DNA from: an uncultured cyanobacterium
Lineage (GTDB): Bacteria > Cyanobacteriota > Cyanobacteriia > PCC-9006 > JAAUQQ01
Assembly (NCBI GenBank): GCA_963718615.1
Contig: OY970368.1
Span: 1,408,001-1,472,000 of the forward strand
Direction: 5' to 3'
Length of the DNA: 64,000 nucleotides
A program made the position numbers and the translations under genes. The stretch's first letter is position 1; every line of letters starts with the position of its first letter. A model generated the notes under the pieces. The model had not been told where the DNA came from. It worked only from the letters and a program-made list of their open reading frames with translations, and did not search any database. This document shows, one piece after another, positions 1 through 55,078 of this stretch.

Positions 1-65
1 TTCAATCCCAGTTCCCCAGCGTGACGGATCTCGATCGCGCGGCCATTGCCAGAAGCACAAGAGTT

Positions 66-3000
66 ATGAACAATTCGACGTTTCTCAGGTTACTCACAGA
101 TTGGAATCGGCTCGCGGCGGGTCTAGCGAGCGCAGACAGCAACAGGGCTCAGGCGACCAACAGCGCCTGGGCAACCTTTGGGCTTGGTCTTGTGGCCGGG
201 TTTGCAGGGGTCATCATGACGACGTTGCCGGTCCTCGCGGTCGAGCCTGCTCCGGCGGAATCCGCTAAAACGGCCCAGGCGACGGGTGGATCTTCCCCAG
301 AGGGAACTTCCGATGATCCACTCTTCATTGAACCGGTCGAGCCCAGCGACCCGCTGCCCCCCCTCGAAGAGTCGTTTCCCCCTGCCAATCCGAGTCCGGA
401 GAGCACCCCCCGCAATCCCACCCCCTCCCCCGTCGATGACAGCGAGCCCGTAGAAATCGACACCAGTTTGGACCAGGGGCCAGAAGCCAGCGAATTGCCT
501 CGGGTGGAGTTTGCGGAGCTCGACAGCATTCAGGCGGATGGTCGGTCGATTCGGTTGGTCGAAGGCCAAGTCCTCAAAGCGGACGGCAGTTTGTTCACCG
601 ATGATGTGGTGGTGACGCTGACCAGCGGCGCAGGCAAGTTTGTCGGCGACGATGCCGATGAAGAGCGGCCTGGTTTCCAAGTGGTTGCGAAGAACGGCAA
701 GTTTGCGGCACGGCTGCGGGCACCGATTCAGGCCCAGCGCACGCGCATTCGGGCGGCGATCGACCCGGTGTGGGATCTAAAAATGCCCCTAGCTGATCTC
801 CAGCGGGAAACCCAGGACCTAGTCCTGCCGACAACGCCCTACCAACCGCTGCGCCAGCCCCTCGTTTCTGAAACCTACACCGATCTAGAATTCACCACCT
901 ATCTGCGGCCTTCGTTGGTTTCGGGTTCGTTGAATGTTCGGCTTGGCAAGGGGACGACGGATTTTTATGGGCCGTTCTCAGAATTTCTCAATCCCAGCGG
1001 CAGCGACGGCTATGAGTTTGATGTGGATGGCGGCCTGTTTGCCACTGGGGCCTTGGGCGAATGGTTATTTACTGGGGCTTTGGCGCTCGATCGCGGCCTC
1101 AACGATGATTGCAACGGCAGCCGCCTTTACCGGGATTACGACAACTGCGACCAGCTCTACCCTGTCTACGGGGACAGTTCAACGGTTGATTACCTCACCC
1201 CGTCCCAGGACAGCATCTACGCCCGTCTGGAGCGCAACTCGCTGATTCCAGGGGCGGACCCCGACTACATCATGTGGGGCGACTGGGGCACGAATGAATT
1301 TGCCCAACCCTCCCAGCTCTTTAGCGCTACGACGCGCAATCTGCACGGGGCCAAGCTCAACTATAACTTCGGCGATTTTCAATTCACCGGGGCCTACGCC
1401 ACTAATATTGACGGTTTCCGCCGAGACACGATTCAGCTCAACGGCACTAGCGGTCTTTACTTCTTCTCCCGCCGTTTGCTGGTTCCTGGTAGTGAAAACC
1501 TCTTTATCGAAACCGAAGAGATTAACCGCCCCGGCTTTGTGGTGGAGCGCAAAGATCTGCGTCGGGGCGCGGACTACGAAATTGATTACGATCGCGGTTC
1601 CATCACCTTCCGCCGCTCGGTTCTGGGTACGGAGTTTGATCCCTTTGGGACGACCCTGGTGCGTCGAGTCGTGGCCACGTACCAGTTTGAAGATGACGGT
1701 GATGCCAATAACGGTCTGTTTGGCGGACGTTTGCAGTACAACCTATCGCGGGAGCTGGGCAAGGAAAGCTGGATCGGTGCGACCTATCTGAATGAAGACC
1801 AGGGCGATCGCGACTTCCAACTGTTTGGCGCAGACTTCCTCGTGCCCCTGGGCACCGCCGGGAGCTTTATCGGGGAATATGCTCGCTCCTCCAACGGTGT
1901 TGATTTCCTCGGCGATGTGGATGGCTCGGCCTATCGACTAGAGGTGGAAGGTAAACCCACGGACTGGGTTCGAGCCCGAGCCTACTACCGCACAGCGGAA
2001 GACGGGTTTGCCAACGATGCCACCTTTAGCTTTGTGCCGGGACAAACCCGTTATGGGGCGCAGGCCACGGCCCAAGCCGGACCCAGCACCCAGGTCCAGG
2101 TCCAGGTGGACCGAGAAAACAATTTTGGTCGTTCGATCAACCTAAGAAATCGGTTTACCGGTGACCTGTTCGATGCCGATAGAAACCTGTTCTTTGACCC
2201 CAATCCGGACTTTGAAGCGGGCGATCGCGTCGACAACACCCTCACCACCGTCCGGGGCGGCATTATCCAAAAGCTAGGGGCGTCGGATTTGAGTTTGGAG
2301 TATGTCTATCGCGATCGCGACGACAATCGAGGCACCTCCCTCAACAGCACCAGCAACCAAATCGTCTCCAAGCTCCTGGTGCCGCTGAATGAAAAGTTTG
2401 CCTTCCGCGCTCAAAACGAACTCAACCTGGGCGACAGTGACGAGCTCTATCCCAACCGCACGACGCTGGGATTGGAGTGGGCCGCTTACCCCGGTGTGAA
2501 ATTGCGACTCGCGCACCAGTTCTTCGATGGTGGCATCCTCAGCAGTAGCGCCATCACTAGCCTCGATACCCTGGCAGATTATGCCCTCTCTGAAAACACC
2601 GACCTCTACAGTCGCTATTCAGTTTTGGGCACCAACAGCGGCATGCGGGGCTACGGCTCCGTCGGCTTAAACCACCGTTGGAAAGTATCACCGGGCTTCC
2701 GGATTAATGTCGGTTACGAGCGTATTTTTGATGATTTGTTCAACCGGACGGGGGCAGGCAACCGCTTTGAGACCGCCTACGCCGTGGGCCAAACCGGCTC
2801 GATTTTAGGCTTGAGCGAAGGCTCTTCCTACAGCGTCGGGTTTGATTACACGGGCTCCGAAACCTTCAAGGGCTCGGGTCGGTTTGAATACCGCGATACC
2901 AGTGATGGGGATCTGTTTCTGACCACCGTGAGCGGTGTGGGCAAGCTGTCGCCTTCGTTCTCGCTCCTGGGTCGTGTGGATGTGGCGGGTGCCTCCAACC

Positions 3001-3734
3001 AAACCCTGGTGGATCGCCTGGGTGATACGCTCAACGCCCGCATTGGTTTGGCCTACCGGAATCCCCTGGACGATCGCTTCAATGGTCTACTCCGCCTAGA
3101 ACACCGACAAAATGGGGACATTACGCCGAACGCCATCGGTACTGGCAGCGAATCCCGCGATACGGTCCTTGCCACCGAGCTGATTTATGCACCGGACTGG
3201 CGCTGGGAATTTTACGGCAAGTACGCCATGCGCTGGGCCGACACCAAGATTGGCGGGGGCTTCAGCAACGACAGCCGCATTTCCCTGGCTCAACTCCGGG
3301 CGCTCTACCGCTTTGATTACCGCTGGGATGTGGCCGCCGAGGCCCGCTGGATTAGTCAACCCACCGCCGACTTCGATGAATTGGGCTGGGCCGCCGAGTT
3401 GGGCTATTACCTCTCTCCCGATCTGCGGGTTTATCTCGGCTATAGCTTCGGCAGCGTCGATGACCGAGACTTCAGCGGCTATCGCTCTGAGGGGGGCATT
3501 TATGGGGGGCTAAACTTCAAGGTCAATCGTTTGTTTAATGACTTTGGGGTGCAGGTACCGGTGCCCAAGGAGCGTGAAGTTCAAGCGGAAGCGGCATTGC
3601 CTGCGGGGGCGATCGCAGAACCCTCTCCCTACGAAGCTCCCGTTGAAGCCGTAGAAGAATCCGAAGCTATGCCCACCCTTGAGGAAGCTGCACCTACCCA
3701 GACCGAGGAAGAAATTCCACGAGCCCTTTTTTAA
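66..3734 (+). CDS. Giant outer-membrane beta-barrel protein of the DUF11-associated type (putative translocon)
   Basis: ORF 21..3734, ATG at 66 preferred. Hydrophobic signal-like segment (FGLGLVAGFAGVIMTTLPVLA), Pro/Glu-rich linker, Ig-like region, YPVYGDSS and LRRGADYEIDYDRGSITF motifs, then about 650 aa of alternating amphipathic beta-strands ending ...GIYGGLNFKV. Adjacent to a DUF11 repeat gene. Confidence 0.75.
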   Translation: MNNSTFLRLLTDWNRLAAGLASADSNRAQATNSAWATFGLGLVAGFAGVIMTTLPVLAVEPAPAESAKTAQATGGSSPEGTSDDPLFIEPVEPSDPLPPLEESFPPANPSPESTPRNPTPSPVDDSEPVEIDTSLDQGPEASELPRVEFAELDSIQADGRSIRLVEGQVLKADGSLFTDDVVVTLTSGAGKFVGDDADEERPGFQVVAKNGKFAARLRAPIQAQRTRIRAAIDPVWDLKMPLADLQRETQDLVLPTTPYQPLRQPLVSETYTDLEFTTYLRPSLVSGSLNVRLGKGTTDFYGPFSEFLNPSGSDGYEFDVDGGLFATGALGEWLFTGALALDRGLNDDCNGSRLYRDYDNCDQLYPVYGDSSTVDYLTPSQDSIYARLERNSLIPGADPDYIMWGDWGTNEFAQPSQLFSATTRNLHGAKLNYNFGDFQFTGAYATNIDGFRRDTIQLNGTSGLYFFSRRLLVPGSENLFIETEEINRPGFVVERKDLRRGADYEIDYDRGSITFRRSVLGTEFDPFGTTLVRRVVATYQFEDDGDANNGLFGGRLQYNLSRELGKESWIGATYLNEDQGDRDFQLFGADFLVPLGTAGSFIGEYARSSNGVDFLGDVDGSAYRLEVEGKPTDWVRARAYYRTAEDGFANDATFSFVPGQTRYGAQATAQAGPSTQVQVQVDRENNFGRSINLRNRFTGDLFDADRNLFFDPNPDFEAGDRVDNTLTTVRGGIIQKLGASDLSLEYVYRDRDDNRGTSLNSTSNQIVSKLLVPLNEKFAFRAQNELNLGDSDELYPNRTTLGLEWAAYPGVKLRLAHQFFDGGILSSSAITSLDTLADYALSENTDLYSRYSVLGTNSGMRGYGSVGLNHRWKVSPGFRINVGYERIFDDLFNRTGAGNRFETAYAVGQTGSILGLSEGSSYSVGFDYTGSETFKGSGRFEYRDTSDGDLFLTTVSGVGKLSPSFSLLGRVDVAGASNQTLVDRLGDTLNARIGLAYRNPLDDRFNGLLRLEHRQNGDITPNAIGTGSESRDTVLATELIYAPDWRWEFYGKYAMRWADTKIGGGFSNDSRISLAQLRALYRFDYRWDVAAEARWISQPTADFDELGWAAELGYYLSPDLRVYLGYSFGSVDDRDFSGYRSEGGIYGGLNFKVNRLFNDFGVQVPVPKEREVQAEAALPAGAIAEPSPYEAPVEAVEESEAMPTLEEAAPTQTEEEIPRALF

Positions 3735-3826
3735 CGTCTCCCGCATCTGCCGGTTTCCTAGGGAGTCCAGCAGATGCATCCTTTTTTGCTGAAACTCTGT
3801 AATCGTGTGTGTCAGGACGTGAACCC

Positions 3827-6800
3827 ATGAGCCGACTGCGACCCCAACTCTTGCTAGATCTTTTCTCCTCCAATTCCAACCGATTGTCTGACTCGGGGCC
3901 ATCCGCTAAACGGAGGCGAAGTCGATGGCTGCAGATGGTTTTGTTGTTTGCGGGGTTGGGGGCGATCGCCCAAGCAAATCCCGCTCAAGCCGCTAGTTTT
4001 ACCTGGAGCAGTACTCCAGGCGCGGGCAACGATTGGGCAGCAGGCACTCTAGACGGTGGCCCCGCAAACAATCCCTTTCAAACGACACCTCAAAGTGGTG
4101 TCACCCTTCAGTTCAACTGGAACACATTTGACGGTGCCAACTTTGTTGCAGGACGTCCTAGCCTGGGTGAAGGCGTCATTGATGGTGGACTAACTTCCGG
4201 CAACTTGCTGGTTATTTTTGCTTCGACGGATGTTCCCAGCCGCGTTGAATTAGACGTTAACTTTACCAACGCAGCCGGGGATGTAGTCCCCGTTCGCAAC
4301 CTGCGATACACCCTAATTGATATTGACCGAGATAACTCCCGAGACTGGCAAGACGTCACTTCCACCTTCGGTCGGTTTGGGGGAACACCTGCCGCTCCAA
4401 ATAGTGGAGGCGCAATTCAACCTACGGTTGTTCCTGGATCCCAGGGGGAAACTGTCGAAGAAGTAACCGGTAATCAAACCGCGATCGGCTATACCGAGCC
4501 TGCTGCCGCCCGGACTTTCCGAGGGATTACAGACCCCTCTCCAGAAAATCTGGGGTTAAACGGTGGTGAAGACGATGAAGGCGTAGAAGCGGATAACTTT
4601 CGAGACGAGGGTAGTGTTACTCTCAATTATCCTGGTACCTTAATCGACTCCTTCCGAATTGTCTACGGCAACGGTGTTTCGAATGGTGCGCTGAACGGTT
4701 TGGGTTTTAATATTCCTTCGCTAGACCGACCTGCTGATGTGAATGATCCAAACCCGCTTTCTCCCACCAATCCGACTCCCCACGGCATCGGCGTTTTAGG
4801 CGATTTCAACTTTGAGCCTGCCATTATTGGTATTGCCAAAACAGCGAGTGATCCTGTTTTCCAACCAGATGGAAGCTTCCGCGTTACCTATACGATGCGG
4901 GTCACCAACACAGGCGAAGTTCCCCTCGACAACGCTGTCATCACAGAAGACGTTGTGCCGGTCTTTGGAGGTGCTGCCAACTTCAACTTTGTCGCTGGGA
5001 GTTTGACCGGAGCCTTAGGGGGAGAGACCTTCAACGGTAGTACAGATACAACCATTGCCCTAGCGGGTGGAACTTTAGCACCCAACGAGTCTAGAGATGT
5101 TTCGTTCCAGGTTGATATTCTGCCCGCTGCCGGACCGGGTCCCTTTGCAAACCAAGCCACAGTGGTCGCGGAACCCCAAGGCTTTCCCGGAATCCAGGTC
5201 ACAGACCGCTCCGCCAACGGCACCAATGTAGACGCGGACGTGGATGATCCCGATGACGGGACTCCGCTTCCTCCAACCTTTACCGCACCCAATGGCAATA
5301 CGGTCACACGGGGCACAACTCCCGACAATGACCCCAGTAACAACGACTCACCAACAGTTGTATCCCTAACTTTCCCGCCCCGAATTGGGGTGACAAAGCA
5401 GGTCACAAACGTTATCAACAATGGCGACGGCACCTTCGACGTCACCTATCGCCAGATTGTCTGTAACCGCAGTGGCGGAACCGTTGGGCTAACCAACGTA
5501 CAGCTCACGGAAAACCTAGACGACACATTCCGTCTGGGTCAGCCCAATGGCGTCACAGCCTATACCGTGCAGAGCGTCACCTCCCCAGCCGCAGTTGCAG
5601 GTGTCCCCAACTATCGACAGATCACCCCGAATGCTGGCTTTAATGGCGGTGCCCAAGGTGATCAGAATCTGCTGGGGGGGACAGATCCCCTGAATACTGA
5701 TGAATGTGGCGTCGTCGATTTTGTGGTTCGGGTAACGCCGGGACCCAATACAGGAGATAACGTTGGTGGTGATCCGCCCTACGAAGGACAAGTGACGGCA
5801 ACGGGCACGGGGCCGGGTCCTGCGAATCTTGTGGTGACGGACCTTTCTGACGATGTGACGTCCTTCCCCAACGCGCCCTTGCCCATTGCGGAACAACTCC
5901 CTCGGGACACTAGCAACCCAGCCAATGGAACAACCACCGATCCTGTCGATGGAAATGGCGTCCCCCAAAGCAACCCGATTCCAGCGAACGATCCCCAGGC
6001 AGCGACCAATGAAAACAACCGTACCCCGATCGCTTTCCTGCCGCCACAGATTGGGGTAACCAAACAGGTTACAAACGTTGCAGACAATGGCAACGGGACC
6101 TTCACCGTCACCTATCGTCATATTGTCTGTAATCTCGGCAATGAAGCCCTAAGCAATGTAACGGTAACGGAGCAGCAGGATCTGGCAACGGTATTCCGTC
6201 AAGGCCAAGCCAATGGTGTGACCAGCGCTCAGTTTGTTCCAGGTAGCTTGGTTGCACCAACAACAGCGCCCGCAGGATTTGAAACCGGATTTACGCCACT
6301 AGCCCCAACCGCTGGGTTTAACGGCACCGCAGGAAGTCTCCAACTGGCGACGGTGGCCAATTTACCCGTAGGTGGCTGCGGAATTGTGGATTATCAAGTG
6401 CTGGTTAATCCCACGGATCCCCTAGATCCTGCCGTCCAAAACCTGGGCGATGGAACATTAGGTAATCCTGCCAATGATGATCCTCCCTATGTGGCTCAGG
6501 TTGAGGCAACGGGAACGGGAGCAACCTCGGCTGTGCCGGTGGCCGACTTGTCTGATGACGTGTCGAATCTGACGGCTCCCCTGCCTCCTGCCCAGCAAAA
6601 GCCCCGAGATACGACCGGAAACTTCACCGCAACGGATGGGGCTAATGGCCCAGGTACCCCAGGTGGCCCTGAAAACGATCCGACGCCGGTCTCTTTGGTG
6701 GCCAATCCTCAAATTGGTTTAACCAAGCAAGTGGTTGACATTGTCAACAATGGGGATGGCAGCTTTGATGTGGTGTTTGAGTATGTGGTTCAGAACGTTG

Positions 6801-7720
6801 GCGGTACACCGCTGAATGGGGTGACGGTTGCTGATAACTATGATGATCAGTTCACGGCCAACAATGTAGGACCACTGGCCAATTACCAGGTCATTAGTGT
6901 CGTTCCTGTGTCCGCAACCGCCCCTGCGCCAATTGTGCCGGATCCGGCGGCAGTGGGGAGAACCCAAGGCAGTGGACTGATTAACCTTGCTACTGGGGGT
7001 GCAACGGTTTATCAACAGCCCCAAGGCGGTCAGCCGGGACAAAACGCAACCTTCCGGGTAACGGTTCGGGTTCTCAATCCCGATCCCAATGCCCTGTATG
7101 ATTCGAGTGCGATCGCCAACGGCAACTCCACGGTCAACGGACAACTGGTCACTGACTTGTCTGACGATATCCCCAGATTTGGTGCAGCGAATCCTGCGAA
7201 CGGAATCGGGGTTCCGGGGCCAGGGGTCACGCCCGGAAACCCCGCCGATCCGGCCAACACCATCACGCCGGTCGTCTTTGCCCAGGCTTCTCCGCTGCAA
7301 CTGTTTAAGCGGATTACCTCATTCACCCAGGCAGGTGTAACGACTCCGCTGACGAATTTGGTCAACAATCCTCCTGTGGCCACCTTTACGGGAGAAGTGG
7401 ACATTCGCCAGCTTGGAGATCTCCTGTCGGGAGATTCGGTGGAATACACGGTCTACTTCCTCAATGGCTCCACTCAAGCGCTAACGAATGTGGAAGTGTG
7501 CGACCCGCTGCCGTCACCCTTGACGATTGTGAATGGTAGTCTGACGGCATCCCAGGGAACGAGTACGTTTATTTCACCGCTCACGCCTCTTTCCTTAGCG
7601 AGCAATCCAGGACGTTCCTGTGGTGCTAGCTCCGGTTCCCAAGGTGCTGCGGTCTTTAATCTGGGTGATATTCCCGCGAACGGCAATGGCTTCGTAAGAT
7701 TTAACACTCAGATTCCTTAG
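3827..7720 (+). CDS. Secreted DUF11 (conserved repeat/Ig-like) multidomain surface protein, probable adhesin
   Basis: ORF 3809..7720, ATG at 3827. Signal peptide ending AQA-ASF. Four repeats beginning IG(I/V/L)xK...DG(S/T)FxVxY/F...N and a C-terminal LFKRIT...GDSVEYTVYFLN...VCDPLP domain. Rich in G/N/T/P/D. Confidence 0.8.
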   Translation: MSRLRPQLLLDLFSSNSNRLSDSGPSAKRRRSRWLQMVLLFAGLGAIAQANPAQAASFTWSSTPGAGNDWAAGTLDGGPANNPFQTTPQSGVTLQFNWNTFDGANFVAGRPSLGEGVIDGGLTSGNLLVIFASTDVPSRVELDVNFTNAAGDVVPVRNLRYTLIDIDRDNSRDWQDVTSTFGRFGGTPAAPNSGGAIQPTVVPGSQGETVEEVTGNQTAIGYTEPAAARTFRGITDPSPENLGLNGGEDDEGVEADNFRDEGSVTLNYPGTLIDSFRIVYGNGVSNGALNGLGFNIPSLDRPADVNDPNPLSPTNPTPHGIGVLGDFNFEPAIIGIAKTASDPVFQPDGSFRVTYTMRVTNTGEVPLDNAVITEDVVPVFGGAANFNFVAGSLTGALGGETFNGSTDTTIALAGGTLAPNESRDVSFQVDILPAAGPGPFANQATVVAEPQGFPGIQVTDRSANGTNVDADVDDPDDGTPLPPTFTAPNGNTVTRGTTPDNDPSNNDSPTVVSLTFPPRIGVTKQVTNVINNGDGTFDVTYRQIVCNRSGGTVGLTNVQLTENLDDTFRLGQPNGVTAYTVQSVTSPAAVAGVPNYRQITPNAGFNGGAQGDQNLLGGTDPLNTDECGVVDFVVRVTPGPNTGDNVGGDPPYEGQVTATGTGPGPANLVVTDLSDDVTSFPNAPLPIAEQLPRDTSNPANGTTTDPVDGNGVPQSNPIPANDPQAATNENNRTPIAFLPPQIGVTKQVTNVADNGNGTFTVTYRHIVCNLGNEALSNVTVTEQQDLATVFRQGQANGVTSAQFVPGSLVAPTTAPAGFETGFTPLAPTAGFNGTAGSLQLATVANLPVGGCGIVDYQVLVNPTDPLDPAVQNLGDGTLGNPANDDPPYVAQVEATGTGATSAVPVADLSDDVSNLTAPLPPAQQKPRDTTGNFTATDGANGPGTPGGPENDPTPVSLVANPQIGLTKQVVDIVNNGDGSFDVVFEYVVQNVGGTPLNGVTVADNYDDQFTANNVGPLANYQVISVVPVSATAPAPIVPDPAAVGRTQGSGLINLATGGATVYQQPQGGQPGQNATFRVTVRVLNPDPNALYDSSAIANGNSTVNGQLVTDLSDDIPRFGAANPANGIGVPGPGVTPGNPADPANTITPVVFAQASPLQLFKRITSFTQAGVTTPLTNLVNNPPVATFTGEVDIRQLGDLLSGDSVEYTVYFLNGSTQALTNVEVCDPLPSPLTIVNGSLTASQGTSTFISPLTPLSLASNPGRSCGASSGSQGAAVFNLGDIPANGNGFVRFNTQIP

Positions 7721-7750
7721 TCACTAGCGCCTCCACTCATTACACCCATG

Positions 7751-7777
7751 ACGTCAAGCCTAGGCTTGACGTTTTTT
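7751..7777 (+). terminator. Intrinsic terminator after the DUF11 gene
   Basis: Perfect 22-bp palindrome ACGTCAAGCCTAGGCTTGACGT (7751-7772) followed by a T run. Confidence 0.75.
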
Positions 7778-7930
7778 ATGGCAACACCATGACTGTCTCA
7801 GGGCTCTGATATAAGATAATTTTTCTGGGAAGAATAAATACGGAGTCTAGGACGAAAAACTAAATACCTGAAAGCCATTCTCTCTACCATGGCTCCCTTT
7901 AGTCCTTGAATGTTCTATAGGCAACTTTGC

Positions 7931-8983
7931 ATGACTAGCGATCGCCCTATTTTTATCGTGGGTATGCCTCGCTCAGGGACGACCCTGCTGCGCGCGATGC
8001 TCTGCGCTCATTCTCGAATCACGATTTCGCCGGAAAGCCATTTTTTGAACTATTGGTTGCGACAGTATCAGCATTTGGACTTGAGGGAGCGCGAAGGGTT
8101 TGACGAATTTTGGTCAGCGTTTAGCTCTAGTCAGCGGTTTTCCTATTTTGGTGTGGAGCCTGAAGGGCTGCGATCGCGTCTTCTAAGCACCTCTGACATT
8201 AGTTTTAAACACATCTTTCAGTCCCTCCTAGAAGCCTATGCCCAGCGGATGGATAAACCCCGTTGGGGCGAGAAAACTCCGATTCACCATGAACATTTGG
8301 ACACATTATTCGACTGGTTTCCCAATGCCCAAGTGATTTGGACTTTGCGGGATCCTAGAGCTACCACCGCCTCGCTCATGCAGGTCGACTGGGCTAGCCG
8401 CTATGCCTTTGTCAATGCAGAATGGTGGCACCGGAGCTTGCAAGGCTTTGAGCAACGCTGGGCGAAGGATCAACGGGTCTTTTTACTCAGATACGAAGCC
8501 TTAGTTCAGCATCCGCAAGCAACATTGCAATCCCTTTGCCATTTCCTGGGTGAAGGCTTTGAGCCGGGAATGGTTCAGGCTCGTCAGGAAAAAGACATGC
8601 CCATTGTCCATACTTCAGGATGGGCGAGAAAGCATTTTCAAGCGGCCCTCTCTCCCCTTCACCAAGAGGCAGTCAAAAAATGGCAAACGGAACTTTCTTC
8701 AACCCAGATTGCCATTGTTGAACATTGTGTTCGCTCCGTGATGATGCGTTATGGGTATCAACCCCAAACCCAGAAATTAGCCCCTTGGCAAACGGGATGG
8801 CTCAAGCTTTCTCGACGACAGTATCACTGGGATTTAAAACTTCAATCCCTGAAACAGGCTTGGGCTCAGACTTCGCTAGAGGAGAAATGGATTGGCACTT
8901 TGCCCAAGCCTTTACGTAAGCTTCAGCCCTATTCCCTTTCATTATCTGCCCAGGTTCCTCTAAAATCAAACCCAATTCACTAA
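7931..8983 (+). CDS. PAPS-dependent sulfotransferase (Sulfotransfer_3-like)
   Basis: 5'-PSB motif IFIVGMPRSGTTLL, WGEKTP, LRDPRAT..S (3'-PB) and LRYEALV. Confidence 0.9.
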   Translation: MTSDRPIFIVGMPRSGTTLLRAMLCAHSRITISPESHFLNYWLRQYQHLDLREREGFDEFWSAFSSSQRFSYFGVEPEGLRSRLLSTSDISFKHIFQSLLEAYAQRMDKPRWGEKTPIHHEHLDTLFDWFPNAQVIWTLRDPRATTASLMQVDWASRYAFVNAEWWHRSLQGFEQRWAKDQRVFLLRYEALVQHPQATLQSLCHFLGEGFEPGMVQARQEKDMPIVHTSGWARKHFQAALSPLHQEAVKKWQTELSSTQIAIVEHCVRSVMMRYGYQPQTQKLAPWQTGWLKLSRRQYHWDLKLQSLKQAWAQTSLEEKWIGTLPKPLRKLQPYSLSLSAQVPLKSNPIH

Positions 8984-9005
8984 GCTTTTTGCACCCCTTC
9001 ATGCC

Positions 9006-10178
9006 ATGACTCTTGATTCAGTCGGAGTACTCATTTGCGGATTTTATGGCTACTCCAATATGGGCGATGAAGCGATGCTGGCGGGGATGATTCGGCTGTT
9101 GCGGCAACACAATCCTGCCTTACCGCTAACGGTGTTGACCTTCAATCCCGAAGATACCCAGCGGCGTCATGGCATTGAAACTGTGGCGACTCATCCGCCT
9201 CGCCGTCGCTTAGAGGCATTCAAACGTTGGTTAAATCCCCTGGATCAGCAGGCGATAAAGGCGAATTCTGGCTTTGTACTAGGGGGCGGCGATTTATTGC
9301 GAGATGGAGCCGATCGCGAAGTGGCAGGATTCTGGCTGGCACCCCTGCAAAAAGCGCTTAAGCTCAAGCGTAAAACCGCGTTACTGGGGGTGAGCGTCGG
9401 TGAAATTTGGAAGCCTGAAACCCAACAATTGATTCCTCAGGTTTTGAATCAAGTGGATCTGATTGCGGTGAGAGATCAGCGCTCCAAAGATCGACTGCAA
9501 GCCCTGTCTGTAAATCAGCCGGTTTATGTGATGCCAGATTTGGCATTGGCAGCAGTTCATGCCTTTTCGCCTGCCCAGCCCAAGGCGAGGGGCGATCGCC
9601 CCCAAATTGGTATTTCAGTTCGCTGGATGAGCAATCGCGGCCAAACCGTCAACTATTCCTATGAGGATTTGCAGCGGGAAATTGCGGCGATCGCCGATTA
9701 CGCCGCCGATCGTTACAACGCCATCGTTCACTTCTTACCGTTCCAAGCCTTTGACAACTACTACAGCAACGACGATGACGACTACATCGCGATTCTAGAG
9801 ATTTTGAAATATAGCGATCGTTCCAGTCAGTTTCAGATCCATCGCTATTTGCCCTCGTTGGAAACGCTCATGGGAATTTTACAAACTCTGGATGTCGTCA
9901 TTGGTATGCGGCTACATTCGCTGATTTTGGCGGCGGGGTTGGGAGTTCCGGTGATTGCGGCGGAATATGACCCGAAGGTCGAAGGCTTTATGACGGAAAT
10001 TAGCCAGCGCGATCGCTCGATTCCGCTGAATGAGTTTCATCGCGATCGCATCATTCCGCTGCTGGATGACATCCTGGCAAAACCAGAAATTACGCGGCGA
10101 TCGCTGGCGGAGGGCTTGGCAAACTACCAGGCTAGGTGGGACACTCTCATGCCCCAATTAGACCGATTATTGGGCTAG
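9006..10178 (+). CDS. Polysaccharide pyruvyl transferase (CsaB/WcaK family)
   Basis: GFYGYSNMGDEAML, LGGGDLLRD, VRDQRS, MPDLA, GMRLHSLILA and YDPKV motifs. Confidence 0.9.
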   Translation: MTLDSVGVLICGFYGYSNMGDEAMLAGMIRLLRQHNPALPLTVLTFNPEDTQRRHGIETVATHPPRRRLEAFKRWLNPLDQQAIKANSGFVLGGGDLLRDGADREVAGFWLAPLQKALKLKRKTALLGVSVGEIWKPETQQLIPQVLNQVDLIAVRDQRSKDRLQALSVNQPVYVMPDLALAAVHAFSPAQPKARGDRPQIGISVRWMSNRGQTVNYSYEDLQREIAAIADYAADRYNAIVHFLPFQAFDNYYSNDDDDYIAILEILKYSDRSSQFQIHRYLPSLETLMGILQTLDVVIGMRLHSLILAAGLGVPVIAAEYDPKVEGFMTEISQRDRSIPLNEFHRDRIIPLLDDILAKPEITRRSLAEGLANYQARWDTLMPQLDRLLG

Positions 10179-10179
10179 A

Positions 10180-11406
10180 TCAACTGTTGGGTTGAGTGAT
10201 TGTGGTGCCAGGTAGCAGTGCCGGTGCGGGTTGAAGTAGTGCTTGATAGGCCTGACGATGAGCCGCTGCAATTCGAGGCAGAGAGAGCTGGCGTTGTAGC
10301 TGCAAAATCTTGGGATCGGGCTGGTCGGTGATGCGCTTGAGGCTGGTTGTAATCCCTGCGGCTAGGGCCTCGGCACTGTAATCCTCGAAGGTTTGAATAG
10401 CATCAGAAACCATAGCATTGAATTCCTGAATTTGGGGCAGATTAAAGGCCAAAATCGGTCGCCCAATGGAAATCCAAGTGGCCAAGGAACCCGAGGCCGA
10501 AGCAATTTGGAATGGACAAACGGCAAGATCGCTAGCGGCCAAGTGCAGTTCTAAATCGGACTCGGAGAGATAGCCGGTGGTGGTGACGCGATCGCCCAAA
10601 TTCAACCGCTCGATTTGCGCGTTTAACTCTCGCTCAAACGCATCCTGTCCCGGTGCCATCCCCCCTGCGAATACAACATCAACAGAAGCGGGCAGGTGAC
10701 TCAGCGCGTCGAGGAGTAGCTGGTGTCCTTTACTCCGAAAGATAAAGCCCTGGAGGGTGACGACTTGGCGATCGCAAGACCATCCCAGTTTTGCCTTAGC
10801 CTCCTTGAGGGATGCAATGGCAGACCGTTTTTCCACGAAGTGGGGGATGATCTGGAGTCGAGAGGCCTGACGAAAATGCTGGAGGCGTTCAGCTTCAATG
10901 CCGTTGGAGACCAAGGGCATCGCCACATTGCCCAACAACCAACGCATAATCGTTTTATCCGCGAGATGGTTTTCCCAAAGCCACCGCATTGTGCTCCAGA
11001 TCGCTAAAGATTTACCGTTGGAATAACCCCGTAGTCGCTTATTTTCGTAGCCCCAAGCCATCCGCACATCGTAGCTGGGATAAATGTAGTCATAAATGTC
11101 ATGCAGCGTTACGCAGAGAGTACCCCGAAATTTGCGCCGAACTTTGCTCAAAAGTCTCAGCTTTTGCCAACCGGGTAGCCCCAAATATTTGCTGTACTGT
11201 ATGTGCAAAATGTCGCAGTCGCTTAAGGTCCGCAGCGCTTGCTGAAGCGGACGTCCCAGACTATGCGGCTCTGTGATCACAACCTCTGCTTCCGCTACGG
11301 TCACACCGGAAAAGGTTGCGATCGCCTGGGAAAGCCGTTTGCCATATCGAGCAACACCACTTTCATGGGCTTGTTGAGCGGTTAGGTGCAAATATCCAAT
11401 CTTCAT
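10180..11406 (-). CDS. Glycosyltransferase family 4
   Basis: SGVARY, HIQY, TLHD, GFIFRSKGH, GYLSE and ASDLAVCPF..ASGSL GT-B motifs. Confidence 0.85.
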   Translation of the reverse strand: MKIGYLHLTAQQAHESGVARYGKRLSQAIATFSGVTVAEAEVVITEPHSLGRPLQQALRTLSDCDILHIQYSKYLGLPGWQKLRLLSKVRRKFRGTLCVTLHDIYDYIYPSYDVRMAWGYENKRLRGYSNGKSLAIWSTMRWLWENHLADKTIMRWLLGNVAMPLVSNGIEAERLQHFRQASRLQIIPHFVEKRSAIASLKEAKAKLGWSCDRQVVTLQGFIFRSKGHQLLLDALSHLPASVDVVFAGGMAPGQDAFERELNAQIERLNLGDRVTTTGYLSESDLELHLAASDLAVCPFQIASASGSLATWISIGRPILAFNLPQIQEFNAMVSDAIQTFEDYSAEALAAGITTSLKRITDQPDPKILQLQRQLSLPRIAAAHRQAYQALLQPAPALLPGTTITQPNS

Positions 11407-16491: not shown

Positions 16492-18876
16492 ATGGAGCGG
16501 GAGAAGTTGTTGGCGGTGATTGAGGAGGCGAGGCAGAGTGGGGAGACACATCTGAATTTGAACTGGAGAAGGATTGAAGAATTGCCACCAGAAATTGGAC
16601 AATTAATCACTCTCACCTCCCTGTACCTCAGCGGCAATTCACTGACAAGCCTGCCTAAGGAAATTGGGCAATTAACAAATCTCACTTCTCTTCGTCTCTG
16701 GAATAATCAACTGATGACCTTGCCAGAGACGATCGGGCAATTAACAAATCTAACTTCCCTTGATCTCTGGAATAATCAACTGACGAGCTTACCCGAAGAA
16801 GTTGGACGTCTAAGCCAGCTAAAGCACTTAGACTTAACTGAAAATCCATTGAGTAAGCTTCCTCCAGAAATCAGAGGAAAATCTGGACTTGAAATTCGTG
16901 ATTACTATCGGCAACGCTTAGAAGAAAAAACTGATTACATCTATGAAGCTAAACTCTTAGTCATCGGTAAAGGCGGAGCTGGAAAAACCAGTCTTGCTAA
17001 CAAACTGATTGATTCAGGTTACACGCTCAAACTTGAGGGAGGCGAAAATCCCGAAAAATCCACAGAAGGGATTGACGTTCTCCGCCTCGACTTCGAGCAT
17101 CCCAGCAACAACCCCTTTCGCATCAACATCTGGGACTTCGGCGGCCAAGAAATCTACCACGCCACCCACCAATTCTTCCTCACCAAACGCTCCCTCTACC
17201 TCCTCGTCGCCGATACCCGCCAAGAAAACACCGACTTCAACTACTGGCTCGAAATCGTCGAACTCCTCAGCGACGCCAGCCCCACCCTGATCATTAAAAA
17301 CGAAAAACAAGACCGCCCCTGCCAAGTCAACGAAAACCAACTGCGCGGACGCTTCCCCAATCTCGAAAAAATCCTCCCCACCAACCTCCTCACCAATCGC
17401 GGCCTCCCCGAGATCCTCGCCGCCGTCCAACACCACATCAGCCAACTCCCCCACATCGGCCAAGCCCTCCCAAAAACCTGGGTCAACGTCCGCAAAGCCC
17501 TCGAAGAAGACAATCGCAACTACATCCCCCAAACCGAATATCTCAGCCTCTGCGACACCCACGGCTTCAAACGCCACAAAGACAAACTTCAACTCAGCGA
17601 ATACCTCCACGACCTCGGCGTCTGCCTCCACTTCCAAGACGACGACCTCCTCCAACGCTACATCATCCTCAAACCCGAATGGGGCACCACCGCCGTTTAC
17701 AAAGTCCTCGACACCCCCAAAGTTCGCCAAAACCTCGGCTGCTTCACCAGCGAAGATCTCAAACTCATTTGGGCCGATGAACAGTATGCAGACATGCGCC
17801 CAGAGCTGCTGCAACTGATGAAAAACTTCAAACTCTGCTACGAGATCCCCCACCGCCCCAAAACCTACATCGCCCCCCAACTCCTCTCCCGCAACCAACC
17901 CGAATACGCATGGAACGACAGCAATAACCTGATTCTGCGCTACCACTACGAATTCATGCCCAAAGGAATGCTCACCCGCTTCATCGTCGAAATGCATCGA
18001 TTAATTGACCGCGAACTCGTTTGGAAAGATGGCGTAATTCTTGCCGACAACAACGCCCGAGCTGAAGTCATCGAAGCCCGCTACCGCAATGAAATTCGCA
18101 TTCGTATCTCCGGCTTCATAAAGAAACCCTTGCTCGAAGGCATCCGCCACGAATTCAAAAAAATCCACGACTCCTACGGAGAACGATTGCGTTTTCAAGA
18201 GCTTATCCCCTGCAACTGCCCAACCTGCAAAGGTTCTCAAAATCCCCACGCCTACCCATTACAAAAACTCCAAGAACGTCTCCAAAATCAAAACTACGAA
18301 ATTGAATGCGACAAGCCCTCCTACCACAAAGTCAGTGTTCGCAACTTAATCGATGACGCCATTAACCCTAAGCCCAACCGCCCAAATGTTGAACTCCTCA
18401 AAGAAGTCCCACACCCCCAACCTTCGTCGTCTCCCATTATCATCAATAATTACCAAACCCAGGATCAACGTAATACCATGACCGAACAGCCACAAACCAC
18501 CAATACCTTCAACGGCCCCACCTCCGGCATCATCGGCAGCACCTTCAACGACAACGCCCAAGCCAGCCGCAACACCTTCACCCAAACCAATCACCCCACC
18601 CCCGCCGAACTCCTCCAACTCATCGCCAGCCTGCGCCAAACCGCCGCCCAACTCCCCCCAGACATCCAAGAAGAACTGATCATCGACCTCGACGACGTCG
18701 AAGCCGAAATTCAAAAGCCTGAGGGCGATCGCAACCCCACCAAACTCAAAAAACGCCTCCTCGCCCTCGCCACCGCCGCCACCCTCACCGCCACCCCGAT
18801 CGCCGCCATCACCGACTTCGCCAACACCGCCCTCGACCTCGCCAACAAACTCGGCATCGAATTGCCTCTACCCTAA
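16492..18876 (+). CDS. Roco protein: LRR - Roc GTPase - COR - Cys/Zn ribbon - C-terminal helical extension
   Basis: 23-aa LRRs (LTSLPKEIGQLTNLTSL), P-loop GKGGAGKTS, STEGID, IWDFGGQEIYHATHQFFLT, COR region (LHDLGVCLHF, ILKPEW) and CNCPTC...C. Confidence 0.92.
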   Translation: MEREKLLAVIEEARQSGETHLNLNWRRIEELPPEIGQLITLTSLYLSGNSLTSLPKEIGQLTNLTSLRLWNNQLMTLPETIGQLTNLTSLDLWNNQLTSLPEEVGRLSQLKHLDLTENPLSKLPPEIRGKSGLEIRDYYRQRLEEKTDYIYEAKLLVIGKGGAGKTSLANKLIDSGYTLKLEGGENPEKSTEGIDVLRLDFEHPSNNPFRINIWDFGGQEIYHATHQFFLTKRSLYLLVADTRQENTDFNYWLEIVELLSDASPTLIIKNEKQDRPCQVNENQLRGRFPNLEKILPTNLLTNRGLPEILAAVQHHISQLPHIGQALPKTWVNVRKALEEDNRNYIPQTEYLSLCDTHGFKRHKDKLQLSEYLHDLGVCLHFQDDDLLQRYIILKPEWGTTAVYKVLDTPKVRQNLGCFTSEDLKLIWADEQYADMRPELLQLMKNFKLCYEIPHRPKTYIAPQLLSRNQPEYAWNDSNNLILRYHYEFMPKGMLTRFIVEMHRLIDRELVWKDGVILADNNARAEVIEARYRNEIRIRISGFIKKPLLEGIRHEFKKIHDSYGERLRFQELIPCNCPTCKGSQNPHAYPLQKLQERLQNQNYEIECDKPSYHKVSVRNLIDDAINPKPNRPNVELLKEVPHPQPSSSPIIINNYQTQDQRNTMTEQPQTTNTFNGPTSGIIGSTFNDNAQASRNTFTQTNHPTPAELLQLIASLRQTAAQLPPDIQEELIIDLDDVEAEIQKPEGDRNPTKLKKRLLALATAATLTATPIAAITDFANTALDLANKLGIELPLP

Positions 18877-25323: not shown

Positions 25324-26598
25324 TTATTTTTGAGCCTTCTTTGCTGCAATTTTATCTTTAAGCACCGTTATCGCTTTGGCATACTGCGGATCCTGGAGCG
25401 TACCAATGAGCGTTCGGTCCTGGCTTAAGGTTTCCTGAGCGGTTTCGCTTAGTTCTAGCACCACATCCGGATCAATGCCATGTTTGTTGATATCTCGTCC
25501 GCTGGGCGTCAAATATTTGGCGATCGTCACCGCCAGCCCAGAACCATCCCCCAAGGGCCGTACCGATTGCACCAAACCCTTCCCAAAGGTCTTCGTCCCA
25601 ATCAACTCGGCGCGATGGTTGTCTTGCAGGGCTCCTGAGAGAATTTCGCTGGCGCTGGCTGATCCCCCATCCACCAACACCACTAGGGGACGATCGGTGA
25701 GGGCACGCCCATTGGCTTCCTCGCGATCGGAAATCCCACGACGATCGACGGTGGAGACAATCGTGCCGTCATTCAGCCACATTCGAGCAATTTCAATACT
25801 GGCGAAGAGGAGACCGCCGGGGTTGGAGCGCAAATCCAAGACATAGCCGTCAACGTTCTTGGTTTCCAGGGTCCGAATGGCCGTCCGCATCTCTTCCGCC
25901 GCATTGGCGTTGAACTGATTCAGTCGGATGTAGCCGGTTTTGAAGCCTTCGTCGTTACGCTCGCTATACCGAACCGGGTGGATTTCAATGCGATCGCGCC
26001 GGATCGCAAACTCCAGTTCCTTCTTTTCGTCCCGACGCACCGTTAGCGTCACGGTTTCCCCCACGGGACCTCGGATCAGCTTGACCGCATCATCCACATT
26101 CATTCCTTCGGTGCTCTTGCCATTAATCTTGATGATTACGTCCCGAGACTGCACCCCAGCCGTAAAGGCTGGTGTATCTTCAATCGGGGCAACGACGACC
26201 AGTTCTTTAGTCTTCTCGTCTTGACTAAGCTGAATCCCAACCCCGGTCAGTTCCCCCGAGGTATCGATTTTCATGTTCTTAAACTCGTCTGGGTCCATGA
26301 AGCGTGTATAAGCATCGCCCAGGGGCTCCAGCATTTTGCGAATGGCTTCGTAGGCGTCGTCCTTGCTGGAATAGTTTTGATTGAGATATGCAAGACGCAC
26401 TTTGCGCCAATCCGTCTGATTAAACGTCCCGTCAACGTAGTCCTTGTCGATGATGTGCCAGACTTCGTCGATCAGTTCCTTCGGACTATCTTGGAAAAAT
26501 GCCTGTACCTTTGACCACTGATTGACTCCCACCAAAGTGACGGTTGCTACTACAGCCGCTGTCGCACCGATTACAAGCTTCGTTTTGGGGAACGCCAT
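25324..26598 (-). CDS. ctpC: Carboxyl-terminal processing protease (S41A), CtpC-like
   Basis: PKELIDEVW, PDZ GVGI, DLRSNPGG, catalytic ASASEI and TFGKGLVQ. Lies downstream of ispG. Confidence 0.85.
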   Translation of the reverse strand: MAFPKTKLVIGATAAVVATVTLVGVNQWSKVQAFFQDSPKELIDEVWHIIDKDYVDGTFNQTDWRKVRLAYLNQNYSSKDDAYEAIRKMLEPLGDAYTRFMDPDEFKNMKIDTSGELTGVGIQLSQDEKTKELVVVAPIEDTPAFTAGVQSRDVIIKINGKSTEGMNVDDAVKLIRGPVGETVTLTVRRDEKKELEFAIRRDRIEIHPVRYSERNDEGFKTGYIRLNQFNANAAEEMRTAIRTLETKNVDGYVLDLRSNPGGLLFASIEIARMWLNDGTIVSTVDRRGISDREEANGRALTDRPLVVLVDGGSASASEILSGALQDNHRAELIGTKTFGKGLVQSVRPLGDGSGLAVTIAKYLTPSGRDINKHGIDPDVVLELSETAQETLSQDRTLIGTLQDPQYAKAITVLKDKIAAKKAQK

Positions 26599-28166: not shown

Positions 28167-28491
28167 ACCCAATTGGTCGCTTGTGGACAGGCGTAGGTTA
28201 GATCAAAATGCTCAAGCCTTGGGGATCAGGGTCTTAATTCGCTGACCTCAGGCATTCTCAGGTTGCCATACAAAGGCTCTTTTGAGGACCCTTTTGGGTA
28301 ATTTCAGCGAGGAGATTGCAGAAGAAATTTTGCAGAAGCTGAAAAGACTGCGAAACATCCGTGTATATGCCAGCAATTGTTACCAAAATAAATCACTTTG
28401 ACTCGTAAATTTTCCGTACATCTGAGCAGATGCGTCGCAGACATCAAGTGGGCAGACTAAGCACAGACGCTCGACGAAAGTGTGGACGCAT

Positions 28492-29691: not shown

Positions 29692-29803
29692 AAATGGGGA
29701 ATCCTTACAGTAGCGCCATCGAAGCGATGTAACACCTGAGTCGCCCATTCCCATCCAAACTTTTTCTTCTGTCTTTGAGCTTTAGAATCCCGAGGTCAAT
29801 CCT

Positions 29804-30169
29804 ATGAACACCGCACTCATTGTTGAGGACTCTTTAACCGAGGCTGAAATCATTTCTAGCTGCCTAAAACAGGGCGGGATTAATGTTTTAACCGCTAAAA
29901 GTGGCGAAGAGGCGCTTGAGACCCTCGGCTCCACTTCTCCTGACATTATCATCCTGGATGTTGTTTTGCCTGGATGTAGTGGTTTTGAACTCTGCCGAAC
30001 CCTGAAATCTGAAAGCAAAACGAGCAGCATTCCCGTGCTCATGTGCTCCACTAAAGGCAGCGATATGGATAAGTTTTGGGGCATGAAGCAGGGTGCTGAT
30101 GCTTATCTTTCTAAGCCAATTGATCAGGATGAGTTTATTCGCACTGTTCGCGAGCTTTTGGGACGGTAA
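29804..30169 (+). CDS. CheY-like response regulator (PixH/PilH-like)
   Basis: Single REC domain: IVEDS, ILDVVLP, DKFWGMKQGADAYLSKP. Confidence 0.92.
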   Translation: MNTALIVEDSLTEAEIISSCLKQGGINVLTAKSGEEALETLGSTSPDIIILDVVLPGCSGFELCRTLKSESKTSSIPVLMCSTKGSDMDKFWGMKQGADAYLSKPIDQDEFIRTVRELLGR

Positions 30170-30351
30170 TCTTATCGCCAGATAGCGCTTTATTTTCATC
30201 GGATTTTCTGGGATTACGAAGCAAATCAATTTTGGTTTTAATCACATCCTTTGGGATTATAAGAGTCGTTGTTCTGTGGAGCAATGGCTCTTTTTTGTGT
30301 TGTTCAGTTTAATTTTGAGGGAATCCTAGGGCTAGGCGCTATTTAGGAGAC

Positions 30352-30909: not shown

Positions 30910-31006
30910 GTCGCTATTCCTAAATGAAAGTCGCCAAGCCTTTAGCTTTTTAATCCGTTTTTCAGTGCTGTATTGACCCCTCGCTTTGAATCTAAGGACT
31001 GTTCCC

Positions 31007-33994: not shown

Positions 33995-34066
33995 GGGGGT
34001 TAAGCCCAACCTTGACCTGGACGAATTTTCCCGTTTTCTATTGTTGACATCGCGTGAGCGGTTCCC

Positions 34067-37108: not shown

Positions 37109-37184
37109 ATCTCTGCATGCCTCTTGATAGAGCCCTGCGGTTCCCCTGTTTTCTCATCATTGATTTTCAAAGGCTTCGCATACT

Positions 37185-55020: not shown

Positions 55021-55078
55021 AAAAACTGCAATCCGCAATCTATGTGCCTATAAGGCTTTGTGCTTGGAGATTATCCTA

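Follow-up and report, generated by a model that had tools for sequence, protein, structure and literature searches.

A giant barrel-type protein gene and a DUF11-type adhesin-like gene as candidate parts of a conserved cyanobacterial envelope module

Introduction

Two adjacent genes near the start of a 64,000-nucleotide (nt) stretch of DNA from an uncultured cyanobacterium (contig OY970368.1; the whole stretch is called the window here) encode a giant, predicted outer-membrane barrel-type protein and a long secreted protein with DUF11-type repeats, the cargo. Both genes are on the + strand. In related cyanobacterial loci they are part of a module that is wider than two genes, and its most constant partner is a small gene, g1, directly upstream of the barrel gene. 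We put at about even odds the explanation that the genes belong to a conserved and so far uncharacterised adhesin-displaying module of the cyanobacterial envelope, with the barrel protein as its outer-membrane subunit and the cargo as one of its clients. The evidence that argues for it is gene linkage, fusion of the partners into single chains in other phyla, and a domain found at the extreme C-terminus of proteins encoded beside the barrel gene.

Cyanobacterial genomes encode many large Sec-dependent adhesin-like proteins, and the proposed module would bear on how these reach the surface and stay on it. Cyanobacteria are not known to have a type IX secretion system (T9SS), and classical type II or type V systems are known from few of them. 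An earlier sequence-only reading of the window had suggested for the two genes a minimal export pathway analogous to the T9SS or to ushers. Full-text literature searches, whose scope was literature open without subscription, returned no paper on the barrel family or on its link to DUF11 genes.

Methods

All coordinates are window positions unless a locus or protein is named. Members of the barrel family were confirmed at 584 or more places in species-representative genomes; DY[ED]IDYDR was one of the two patterns by which at least 584 relatives were retrieved. The locus set consists of the best-scoring 80 of these places (numbered L001 to L080), in which open reading frames (ORFs) were mapped and matched to Pfam-annotated representatives. 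Upstream genes were counted in the 76 loci with at least 1 kb of upstream sequence, genes immediately downstream in 70 loci, and ORFs with the C-terminal domain in the 61 loci with at least 6 kb of downstream sequence. The loci represent seven cyanobacterial orders. The C-terminal domain was searched for with the last 143 amino acids (aa) of the cargo, iterated over all locus ORFs.

Remote homology was assessed with a 349-row profile of the barrel family, distant fused forms included. The hhalign templates were single Escherichia coli sequences (FimD, LptD, FhuA, BamA and YeeJ residues 1-900), which makes each of these comparisons a weak test. Plug is PF07715, and TonB_dep_Rec, the 22-strand barrel, is PF00593; SprA is represented in Pfam, NCBIfam and the Protein Data Bank (PDB). 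Rfam gave no match in the window, and Tandem Repeats Finder gave nothing relevant in window positions 1-8000.

Results

Gene order in cyanobacterial loci

In 74 of 76 loci the gene directly upstream of the barrel gene, in the same orientation, is g1, which encodes a Sec-exported protein with DUF11 and SdrD_B domains; in 59 of those 74 the two genes share 4 or 1 nt at the start of the barrel gene. The g1 product is about 310 aa long, or about 510 aa in a paralogue type found in Nostocales. The two exceptions are L023, where an ORF fragment lies between the genes, and L049, where the barrel ORF is short (901 aa). Directly downstream of the barrel gene, 36 of 70 loci have a gene (g3) for a protein with Beta_helix/NosD and Big_6 domains, with or without OmpA. 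The sequence-only reading had proposed a minimal two-gene unit, a proposal that these upstream and downstream partners contradict. Of the 61 loci with enough downstream sequence, 52 have there at least one ORF that exceeds 400 aa and has the C-terminal domain as its end, and in eight loci there are two or three. All 181 ORFs that match the iterated DUF11/C-terminal-domain profile are on the strand of the barrel gene, compared with 581 of 813 ORFs overall.

The window barrel clusters with loci L001, L002 and L059 from metagenome-assembled genomes of Pseudanabaenaceae, with a local Shimodaira-Hasegawa-like support of 100. The gene order in these three loci is fraC, DUF5357, ABC-2, g1, barrel, cargo, pyruvyl transferase and sulfotransferase, without a beta-helix/OmpA gene. 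There g1 ends 84-85 nt ahead of the barrel start; the window has 65 nt of sequence at that place, and its own g1 would lie just off the 5' edge, upstream of base 1.

Two observations on the wider loci may be added. In these nearest relatives the module is directly downstream of genes for FraC, DUF5357 and ABC2_membrane_2 proteins (L002:4470-7149, and likewise L001 and L059); the DUF5357 protein is presumably FraD and the ABC-2 protein FraE, of the fraC-fraD-fraE filament-integrity genes, and the equivalent region of the present genome lies beyond the window. The Nostocales paralogue type (L038-L080, for example L054:3958-9002) has, with its g1 of about 510 aa, additional DUF7925 (about 850 aa) and DUF11 (about 190 aa) proteins encoded upstream, and both module types occur in some genomes, such as that of Tolypothrix FACHB-123 (L021 and L055).

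Fusions in other phyla

Distant relatives, with about 25-33% identity over the barrel, are 1600-2900 aa long and carry the barrel at or near the C-terminus. When 20 of them were scanned for domains, 11 had DUF11 N-terminal to the barrel, six had Invasin_D3/Big_1 just before it, five had OmpA after it and two had SLH before it. Hidden Markov models (HMMs) built locally show a full g1 module (E 1e-14 to 1e-70 for the 45 cases listed) joined to the barrel in a single chain for 151 of the 378 proteins collected, and in one of these, P0142, the g1 module (residues 171-423) and the barrel (437-1297) abut. The fused forms that carry a name belong to Desulfobacterales, Syntrophales, 'Deltaproteobacteria', Nitrospirota, Omnitrophica, Gammaproteobacteria, Glaciimonas and Sphingomonas. 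Such chains form a Rosetta-stone pattern and speak strongly for joint action of g1, the barrel and the OmpA module. The association of barrel and DUF11 genes that the sequence-only reading had suspected is thereby found in two forms, gene order (74 of 76 loci upstream, 52 of 61 downstream) and fusion. In diderm bacteria SLH and OmpA are peptidoglycan-binding domains, and their positions in the fused relatives suggest that the Ig (immunoglobulin-like) arm adjacent to the barrel is periplasmic.

The C-terminal domain shared by clients

In 57 of the 80 loci, 67 ORFs of more than 400 aa end with the C-terminal domain, no more than two residues from the stop codon. The bodies of these proteins, called clients here, are dissimilar and consist of five SdrD_B domains, GEVED, DUF6923 or DUF7507; for proteins with the domain, precomputed Pfam lists include lectin-type and DUF6923 heads. 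Its consensus is GDxVEYTIYFL..CD.IP...C..NPNGAVVVNLG..P...GFVRFRVKV[DKN]-end, in which two Cys plus D, Y, T, Y, D, G, G and F are invariant among 30 sequences. In the alignment of the domain the invariant positions include D56, Y60, T61, Y63, C78, D79, C118 and F145. Secretion signals are common in the set: 48 of the 67 proteins pass a crude hydrophobic-window test, and further Sec-type leaders are visible by eye. The profile of the domain gave 1049 database matches; every named organism among the 120 matches listed is cyanobacterial, and frequent names among them are 'isopeptide-forming domain-containing fimbrial protein' and 'DUF11 domain-containing protein'.

An HMM made from the 67 terminal domains and the window's own copy matches the cargo solely at its last ~115 residues (E 1.6e-25, versus E 41 for an internal repeat), in agreement with the earlier claim that the last cargo domain differs from the internal repeats. 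No dedicated model for the complete domain was found in the Pfam and NCBIfam scans; its first half alone matches TIGR01451/DUF11, and over the final 150 aa, the cargo and four related clients matched DUF11-type models only, with no match to Por_Secre_tail or to the type A or B C-terminal domains. Because that first half is a DUF11-type repeat, part of the cross-matching between C-terminal domains reflects a common fold. The same DUF11-type half is shared with g1 (hhalign probability 78%, E 1.9e-5, 52 columns). We also considered the domain as the split junction of the fused proteins, and its generic DUF11 half alone matches the fused relatives. A conserved, strictly C-terminal module carried by otherwise unrelated neighbours looks like a sorting or docking domain.

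The barrel family and known barrels

A word-indexed search gave 1169 relatives of the barrel protein at E<=1e-3. The 120 relatives listed have at least 50% identity over 98-100% of the query, and all named organisms among them are cyanobacterial; their source names include 'hypothetical', 'TonB-dependent receptor' (five), 'Ig-like domain-containing' (two) and 'OprO/OprP porin' (one). An exhaustive HMMER search over the representatives of 50%-identity clusters gave 1860 of them at E<=1e-3 and 221 at E<=1e-30. For one homologue, P0025, the feature neighbours are unnamed clusters or carry the labels 'TonB-dependent receptor' or 'OmpA family'.

The only Pfam match of the barrel protein is DUF2490, at 22.3 bits and under the cut-off of 29.8, and NCBIfam gave no match. 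Models for Plug, TonB_dep_Rec, POTRA, Autotransporter, Usher, LptD and SprA in Pfam and NCBIfam gave no match at E<=0.1. Searched against PDB sequences, the barrel, its profile and the most conserved block gave nothing meaningful; the best match of the barrel was a designed transmembrane barrel, 6x1k, which is weak at E 0.045, and no SprA chain appeared at E<=10. The view of the sequence-only reading that the protein has no TonB plug, POTRA or autotransporter layout is upheld by these searches, and the likeness to SprA that it drew from a motif is not.

Five identities were assessed one by one and found no support by sequence, with the hhalign comparisons used in addition, each a weak test with its single-sequence template. 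A TonB-dependent receptor is disfavoured by the lack of a Plug or TonB_dep_Rec match and an hhalign probability of 0.3% against FhuA, and an Autotransporter or Omp85 protein by the lack of a Pfam match with probabilities of 0.1% (BamA) and 1.1% (YeeJ residues 1-900). LptD gave no OstA/LptD Pfam match and 0.3%. A fimbrial usher, a comparison that the earlier reading had also raised, gave no Usher, PapC_N or PapC_C match and 0.1% against FimD, and no PapD-like chaperone or usher was matched by Pfam on the neighbours scanned in the window, L002, L009, L025 and L054. SprA/Sov found no support by sequence, on the Pfam, NCBIfam and PDB results above. As judged from all of these searches, no recognised family includes the barrel protein.

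Coevolution was also used to look for strand pairing and for closure of the barrel, by mean-field direct coupling analysis with a reduced alphabet on 331 sequences (effective number of sequences 200). The signal was gap-driven and short-range only; the ladder scores for first-versus-last strand (1.0) and for an alternative closure (2.5) were both within the null (90th percentile 3.1). The analysis is uninformative because the sequence depth is too low.

The barrel gene and its product

The barrel gene (66-3734) runs from an ATG at 66 to a stop at 3734, in a reading frame that is open up to the window edge. Close relatives begin with MKNLTFL.., in register with MNNSTFL.. in the window, and since these starts align, the gene is taken to be whole and to start at 66. 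The protein is thus complete at 1222 aa, matching the sequence-only description of a ~1220-aa protein with a signal-like N-terminus, a leader that we too read by eye. The putative signal peptide (66-239) is an extended one, in which a conserved N-extension of about 35 aa precedes the h-region; the h-region, ..FGLGLVAGFAGVIMTTLPVLA, is signal-peptide-like and is followed by VEP, with the predicted cleavage site between VLA and VE, where relatives have AxA-type sites. The extension (MKNLTFL..W.R..) is conserved in the window's clade and is reminiscent of large type V proteins, which also have extended signal peptides.

The N-terminus of the processed protein is a Pro/Glu-rich, low-complexity linker of about 110 aa (240-572), whose length varies among relatives. 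It is followed by a putative Ig-like domain of Big_1/Invasin_D3 type, about 90 aa long (573-860) and placed by alignment ahead of the barrel; relatives score PF09134/PF02369 (Invasin_D3/Big_1) at the equivalent position, and the window's own copy has no Pfam match at E<=5.

The barrel region proper (870-3536, about 890 aa) ends in a last predicted strand ..GLNFKVNRLF and is delimited by amphipathic periodicity, not by fold prediction. The periodicity scan with the 349-row profile marks 36 amphipathic segments within residues 269-1157, several of which clearly contain two strands, and so bears out the long run of amphipathic beta-strands noted earlier; it suggests roughly 30-40 strands, a number guessed from the period. 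Within this region, column conservation and invariant columns place the most conserved block of the superfamily (YPxYGDxS ... GSExV ... DYxIDYxxGxxxF) at 1158-1622. Across the 349 sequences, distant fused forms included, the best-conserved stretch is residues ~365-519, and the putative membrane strands are less conserved. The LVPGSE...DYEIDYDRGSITF motif at about 1479-1610 is a signature of the barrel family (DYEIDYDRG), with D, Y, D, Y, R, G and F invariant in 50 sequences. We infer from this conservation that the block is a candidate plug or substrate-contact domain.

The protein closes with an acidic, Pro-rich tail of 65 aa (3537-3731) ending ..IPRALF, an ending also seen in relatives of the clade and in the upstream g1 proteins; in fused relatives an OmpA domain stands in place of this tail. 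Pro/Glu-rich tails with the last residues ..IPRALF or ..PVPALF are a feature of the barrel protein and of g1 alike in the window's clade (L002:8057-9157; L059:8123-9211). It is possible that the common ending serves both proteins as a C-terminal motif for docking or quality control. A gene for an S41 C-terminal processing protease with a PDZ domain is found at 25324-26598 (- strand), and is mentioned here given these shared tails.

The cargo gene and its surroundings

The cargo gene (3809-7720) encodes a protein of 1303 aa from a GTG start, or of 1297 aa from an alternative ATG at 3827, which has AGGA ahead of it and lies 92 nt past the barrel stop; the secreted Ig-repeat protein of ~1300 aa about 90 nt downstream in the sequence-only reading is therefore confirmed. 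Its leader, read by eye, is of Sec type and ends ..AQANPAQA; the signal peptide (3809-3991) is read as KRRRSRW-LQMVLLFAGLGAIAQANPAQA with cleavage before AS. An N-terminal head domain of about 275 aa (3992-4813) is common to the cargo proteins of L001, L002 and L059 and belongs to no known family by our searches, with no Pfam match at E<=5 and no PDB sequence match at E<=10. The stalk (4814-7297) consists of four DUF11/DUF7507 repeats of about 200 aa, two of them with a Cys pair; the repeats are evident by alignment, and a self-BLAST of the cargo gave no off-diagonal pairs. The protein matches DUF7507 at 50.4 bits (cut-off 27), DUF11 at 31.9 bits (cut-off 24.6) and TIGR01451 at 49.2 bits (cut-off 24). 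With a leader and tandem domains above the curated cut-offs, the cargo is predicted to be of the DUF11/CLIPPER fibrillar-adhesin type. According to the main text of a survey of such proteins, DUF11 and DUF7507 are stalk domains of surface fibrillar adhesins, and some DUF11 domains are without the Lys-Asp-Asn isopeptide triad (PMC12617251). The last ~140 aa (7298-7717) are the family-specific C-terminal domain, GDSVEYTVYFL..VCDPLP..SCG..GAAVFNLGDIP..GFVRFNTQIP-end.

The sequence-only reading had the unit closed by one terminator. There is indeed a terminator-like hairpin with a T run after the cargo gene (7750-7783; stem-loop 7750-7773 with a 10-bp stem), found by a consensus scan for intrinsic terminators. 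It is not alone, and folding finds a second hairpin with a U run, terminator- or attenuator-like, between the barrel and cargo genes (3743-3789). This one has a folding energy of -20.3 kcal/mol (z -2.19), with 7 of 200 shuffled sequences folding equally well, and falls outside the consensus scan, as its loop exceeds the accepted 3-8 nt. It is possible that it acts as an attenuator setting the ratio of barrel and cargo products.

Past the cargo gene lie genes for a sulfotransferase (7910-8983), a polysaccharide pyruvyl transferase (9006-10178) and a GT1 glycosyltransferase (10180-11406, - strand), the first two of which also trail the cargo gene in the related locus L002. Their products could modify a surface glycan or the adhesin itself.

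Other genes in the window

A chemotaxis-like cluster at 28480-42208 encodes a DUF4388 and REC regulator, a REC protein, CheW, two HAMP-GAF-MCP receptors, a hybrid Hpt-HATPase-CheW-REC kinase and a second CheW, and is of the sort by which cyanobacteria control phototaxis or motility with type IV pili. Genes for type I secretion at 55058-63091 comprise those for an HlyD-family protein, an ABC exporter with cNMP-binding and C39 peptidase domains, and an RTX-repeat protein (61913-63091). A gene for an LRR-Roc-COR (ROCO) GTPase is present at 16492-18876.

Discussion

Proposed mechanism

We propose that the module displays adhesins by means of four parts. The first would be g1, a Sec-exported protein with two Ig-like domains (DUF11/CLIPPER and SdrD_B), translationally coupled to the barrel gene. 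The second would be the barrel protein of 1200-1400 aa, with its signal peptide, Pro-rich linker, Big_1-like Ig domain, DYxIDYxxG block of about 150 aa and some 30-40 amphipathic strands. The third, in many lineages but not in that of the window, would be a beta-helix/Big_6/OmpA protein that binds peptidoglycan, and the fourth one to three long adhesin-like proteins with varied heads and stalks and the common C-terminal domain.

Clients would cross the inner membrane by the Sec pathway, fold in the periplasm and form disulfide and possibly isopeptide bonds there. They would be recognised through the common C-terminal domain by g1, by the periplasmic Ig arm of the barrel protein, or by both, and the barrel protein would then pass them across the outer membrane, or hold them in it, with head and stalk projecting from the cell. 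Given their Sec-type leaders and the conserved Cys pairs in stalk and tail, the clients probably fold before they cross the outer membrane, and if they are folded in the periplasm they would need a wide conduit or a lateral route. It is the binding of clients, their export through the barrel, the topology and the size of the pore that we infer in this scheme. A bolder claim, which we put forward tentatively and consider rather unlikely, is that the barrel, the g1 adaptor and the C-terminal domain form a previously unrecognised secretion and anchoring pathway for folded, Sec-exported giant adhesins, represented elsewhere by single-chain, self-exporting adhesins (DUF11 repeats, giant barrel, OmpA) and analogous to the T9SS and ushers with unrelated parts.

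Several points weigh against display of adhesins by the barrel. Nine of the 61 loci (L012, L049, L053, L063, L068, L073, L074, L078 and L080) are without an ORF ending in the C-terminal domain. The first half of that domain is an ordinary DUF11-type repeat, and the complete domain was not found in the fused relatives, which gave partial matches only, at HMM positions ~28-76. With the intergenic hairpin and its U run, transcription of the barrel gene and of the cargo gene may be partly separate. The strand number is read from periodicity, and the wide lumen is presumed. The 80 loci are non-independent, as they are the best-scoring of at least 584 and 48 of the 79 that were placed in the tree are Nostocales. 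Lastly, the SLH domains that separate g1 module and barrel in 2 of 20 fused relatives, and the OmpA domain after the barrel in 5 of 20, fit a periplasmic adaptor but fit a purely structural tether equally well.

Alternative explanations

Such a structural tether is the main rival. Here g1, the barrel and the OmpA protein would bridge the outer membrane to the peptidoglycan with their Ig arms in the periplasm; the barrel would be a porin-like anchor, and the adhesins would reach the surface by another route, or stay periplasmic, and merely dock. The peptidoglycan-binding domains flanking the barrel in fused relatives favour this explanation, as do the OmpA domain of g3, the Pro-rich linkers and tails on either side of the barrel, and a sub-threshold SlpA_C match in one fused relative (19.8 bits, cut-off 35). 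It leaves unexplained why 67 proteins with unrelated bodies have the same extreme C-terminal domain beside the barrel gene, and why a non-membrane block is the most conserved part of the barrel protein; moreover, the OmpA gene is absent from the locus in the window's clade. We regard a tether as unlikely, and place it ahead of the other alternatives.

Usher-like fibre assembly is a variant of the display idea, in which the barrel would build a pilus-like fibre out of g1 and the C-terminal-domain proteins, linked through strand exchange or through cross-links between DUF11-type domains, with g1 as chaperone or base subunit. The order of a small protein with two Ig domains, a large barrel and adhesin-like proteins mirrors the fim and pap operons, the C-terminal domain and g1 share their DUF11-type half, eight loci have two or three client genes, and many clients are named 'isopeptide-forming domain-containing fimbrial protein' by NCBI and JGI. 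However, no Usher, PapC or PapD match was found and FimD gave the hhalign value cited above; the clients are multidomain proteins of 550-1600 aa with seemingly complete Ig-type domains, and the 4-nt overlap and the fusions suggest a 1:1 ratio of g1 to barrel, unlike a cycling chaperone. We judge this variant to be quite improbable.

The weakest explanation, to which we attach very little probability, is a transport barrel with chance neighbours, either an importer like a TonB-dependent receptor or porin or an exporter of sulfated or pyruvylated polysaccharide, with the DUF11 gene merely adjacent: the sulfotransferase, pyruvyl transferase and GT1 genes at 7910-11406 (and those in L002) and the five 'TonB-dependent receptor' and one 'OprO/OprP porin' names speak for it, but there is no Plug or TonB_dep_Rec match at E<=0.1, FhuA gives 0.3%, polysaccharide genes stand beside the barrel gene in the window's clade only, and the DUF11 partners in 74 of 76 loci together with the fusions in other phyla make chance adjacency unlikely.

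Significance

Display of adhesins by a barrel-based module would give the question of how large cyanobacterial adhesins are presented a concrete candidate, comprising a barrel family of more than 1000 sequence clusters, an Ig-domain partner, and a tail domain on more than 1000 adhesin-like proteins. The module could bear on adhesion, biofilm or mat formation, aggregation and possibly gliding in filamentous cyanobacteria, and could be of use for displaying proteins on the surface of strains for biotechnology. Judging by the fused forms in Desulfobacterales, Syntrophales, Nitrospirota and others, giant-barrel adhesins may be a far larger class that has gone unstudied.

Comparison with known systems

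The proposed module resembles Deinococcus SlpA-type proteins in that a very large barrel is joined, in relatives, to peptidoglycan-binding domains. It differs in that SlpA_C is matched by one fused relative only, below threshold, and in that the window barrel has no SLH or OmpA domain by Pfam.

The fused relatives, with a long N-terminal run of Ig-like domains and a C-terminal barrel, recall the passenger and translocator of type V systems, and a Big_1/Invasin_D3 domain abuts the barrel as in intimin. The translocator of type V systems has 12 strands. The barrel region here is several times longer than a translocator, SLH or OmpA flank it in some relatives, there is no Autotransporter or POTRA match (YeeJ residues 1-900, hhalign 1.1%), and the cyanobacterial 'passenger' is a separate gene product.

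Chaperone-usher systems (FimC/FimD, PapD/PapC) share the gene order of a small protein with two Ig domains, a large barrel and adhesins, as well as a barrel with Ig-like accessory domains and, possibly, an inserted conserved domain. In contrast to those systems, the barrel region here spans ~890 aa, the clients are giant multidomain proteins rather than single incomplete Ig subunits, and g1 is fused to the barrel in other phyla; there is no Usher, PapC or PapD match, and FimD gives 0.1%.

The T9SS is alike in several respects: Sec-exported, folded surface proteins that often have Ig repeats, a conserved C-terminal beta-sandwich domain, a very large barrel, and a peptidoglycan-binding OmpA-type partner (PorE). 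SprA is a 36-strand barrel. The differences are that the barrel and cargo, compared by sequence and not by fold, have no match to SprA or Por_Secre_tail models, that the C-terminal domain here is DUF11-type with two invariant Cys, and that there is no other T9SS-type gene among the scanned neighbours.

The clients themselves are most readily compared with the adhesins built of CLIPPER (DUF11) and CLIPPER_2 (DUF7507) domains, which likewise have a signal peptide, head, tandem stalk and terminal anchoring module, for example Acinetobacter silvestris B9T28_05395 (PDB 9IFR; described in the main text of PMC12617251). The C-terminal-domain profile weakly matches 9ifr_A (E 0.037). According to the main text of that survey the anchors of CLIPPER adhesins are OmpA-like, Por_secre_tail, CHU_C or LPXTG; 'barrel' and 'cyanobacteri' are absent from its main text, and its supplementary co-occurrence tables might list such architectures (PMC12617251). 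In the proteins described here, by contrast, the terminal module is a distinct cyanobacterial domain encoded beside a barrel gene. Set against these systems, the cyanobacterial module would be a barrel-based display of tail-tagged surface proteins, built from parts of its own that have no detectable relation to the components of T9SS, usher or type V pathways.

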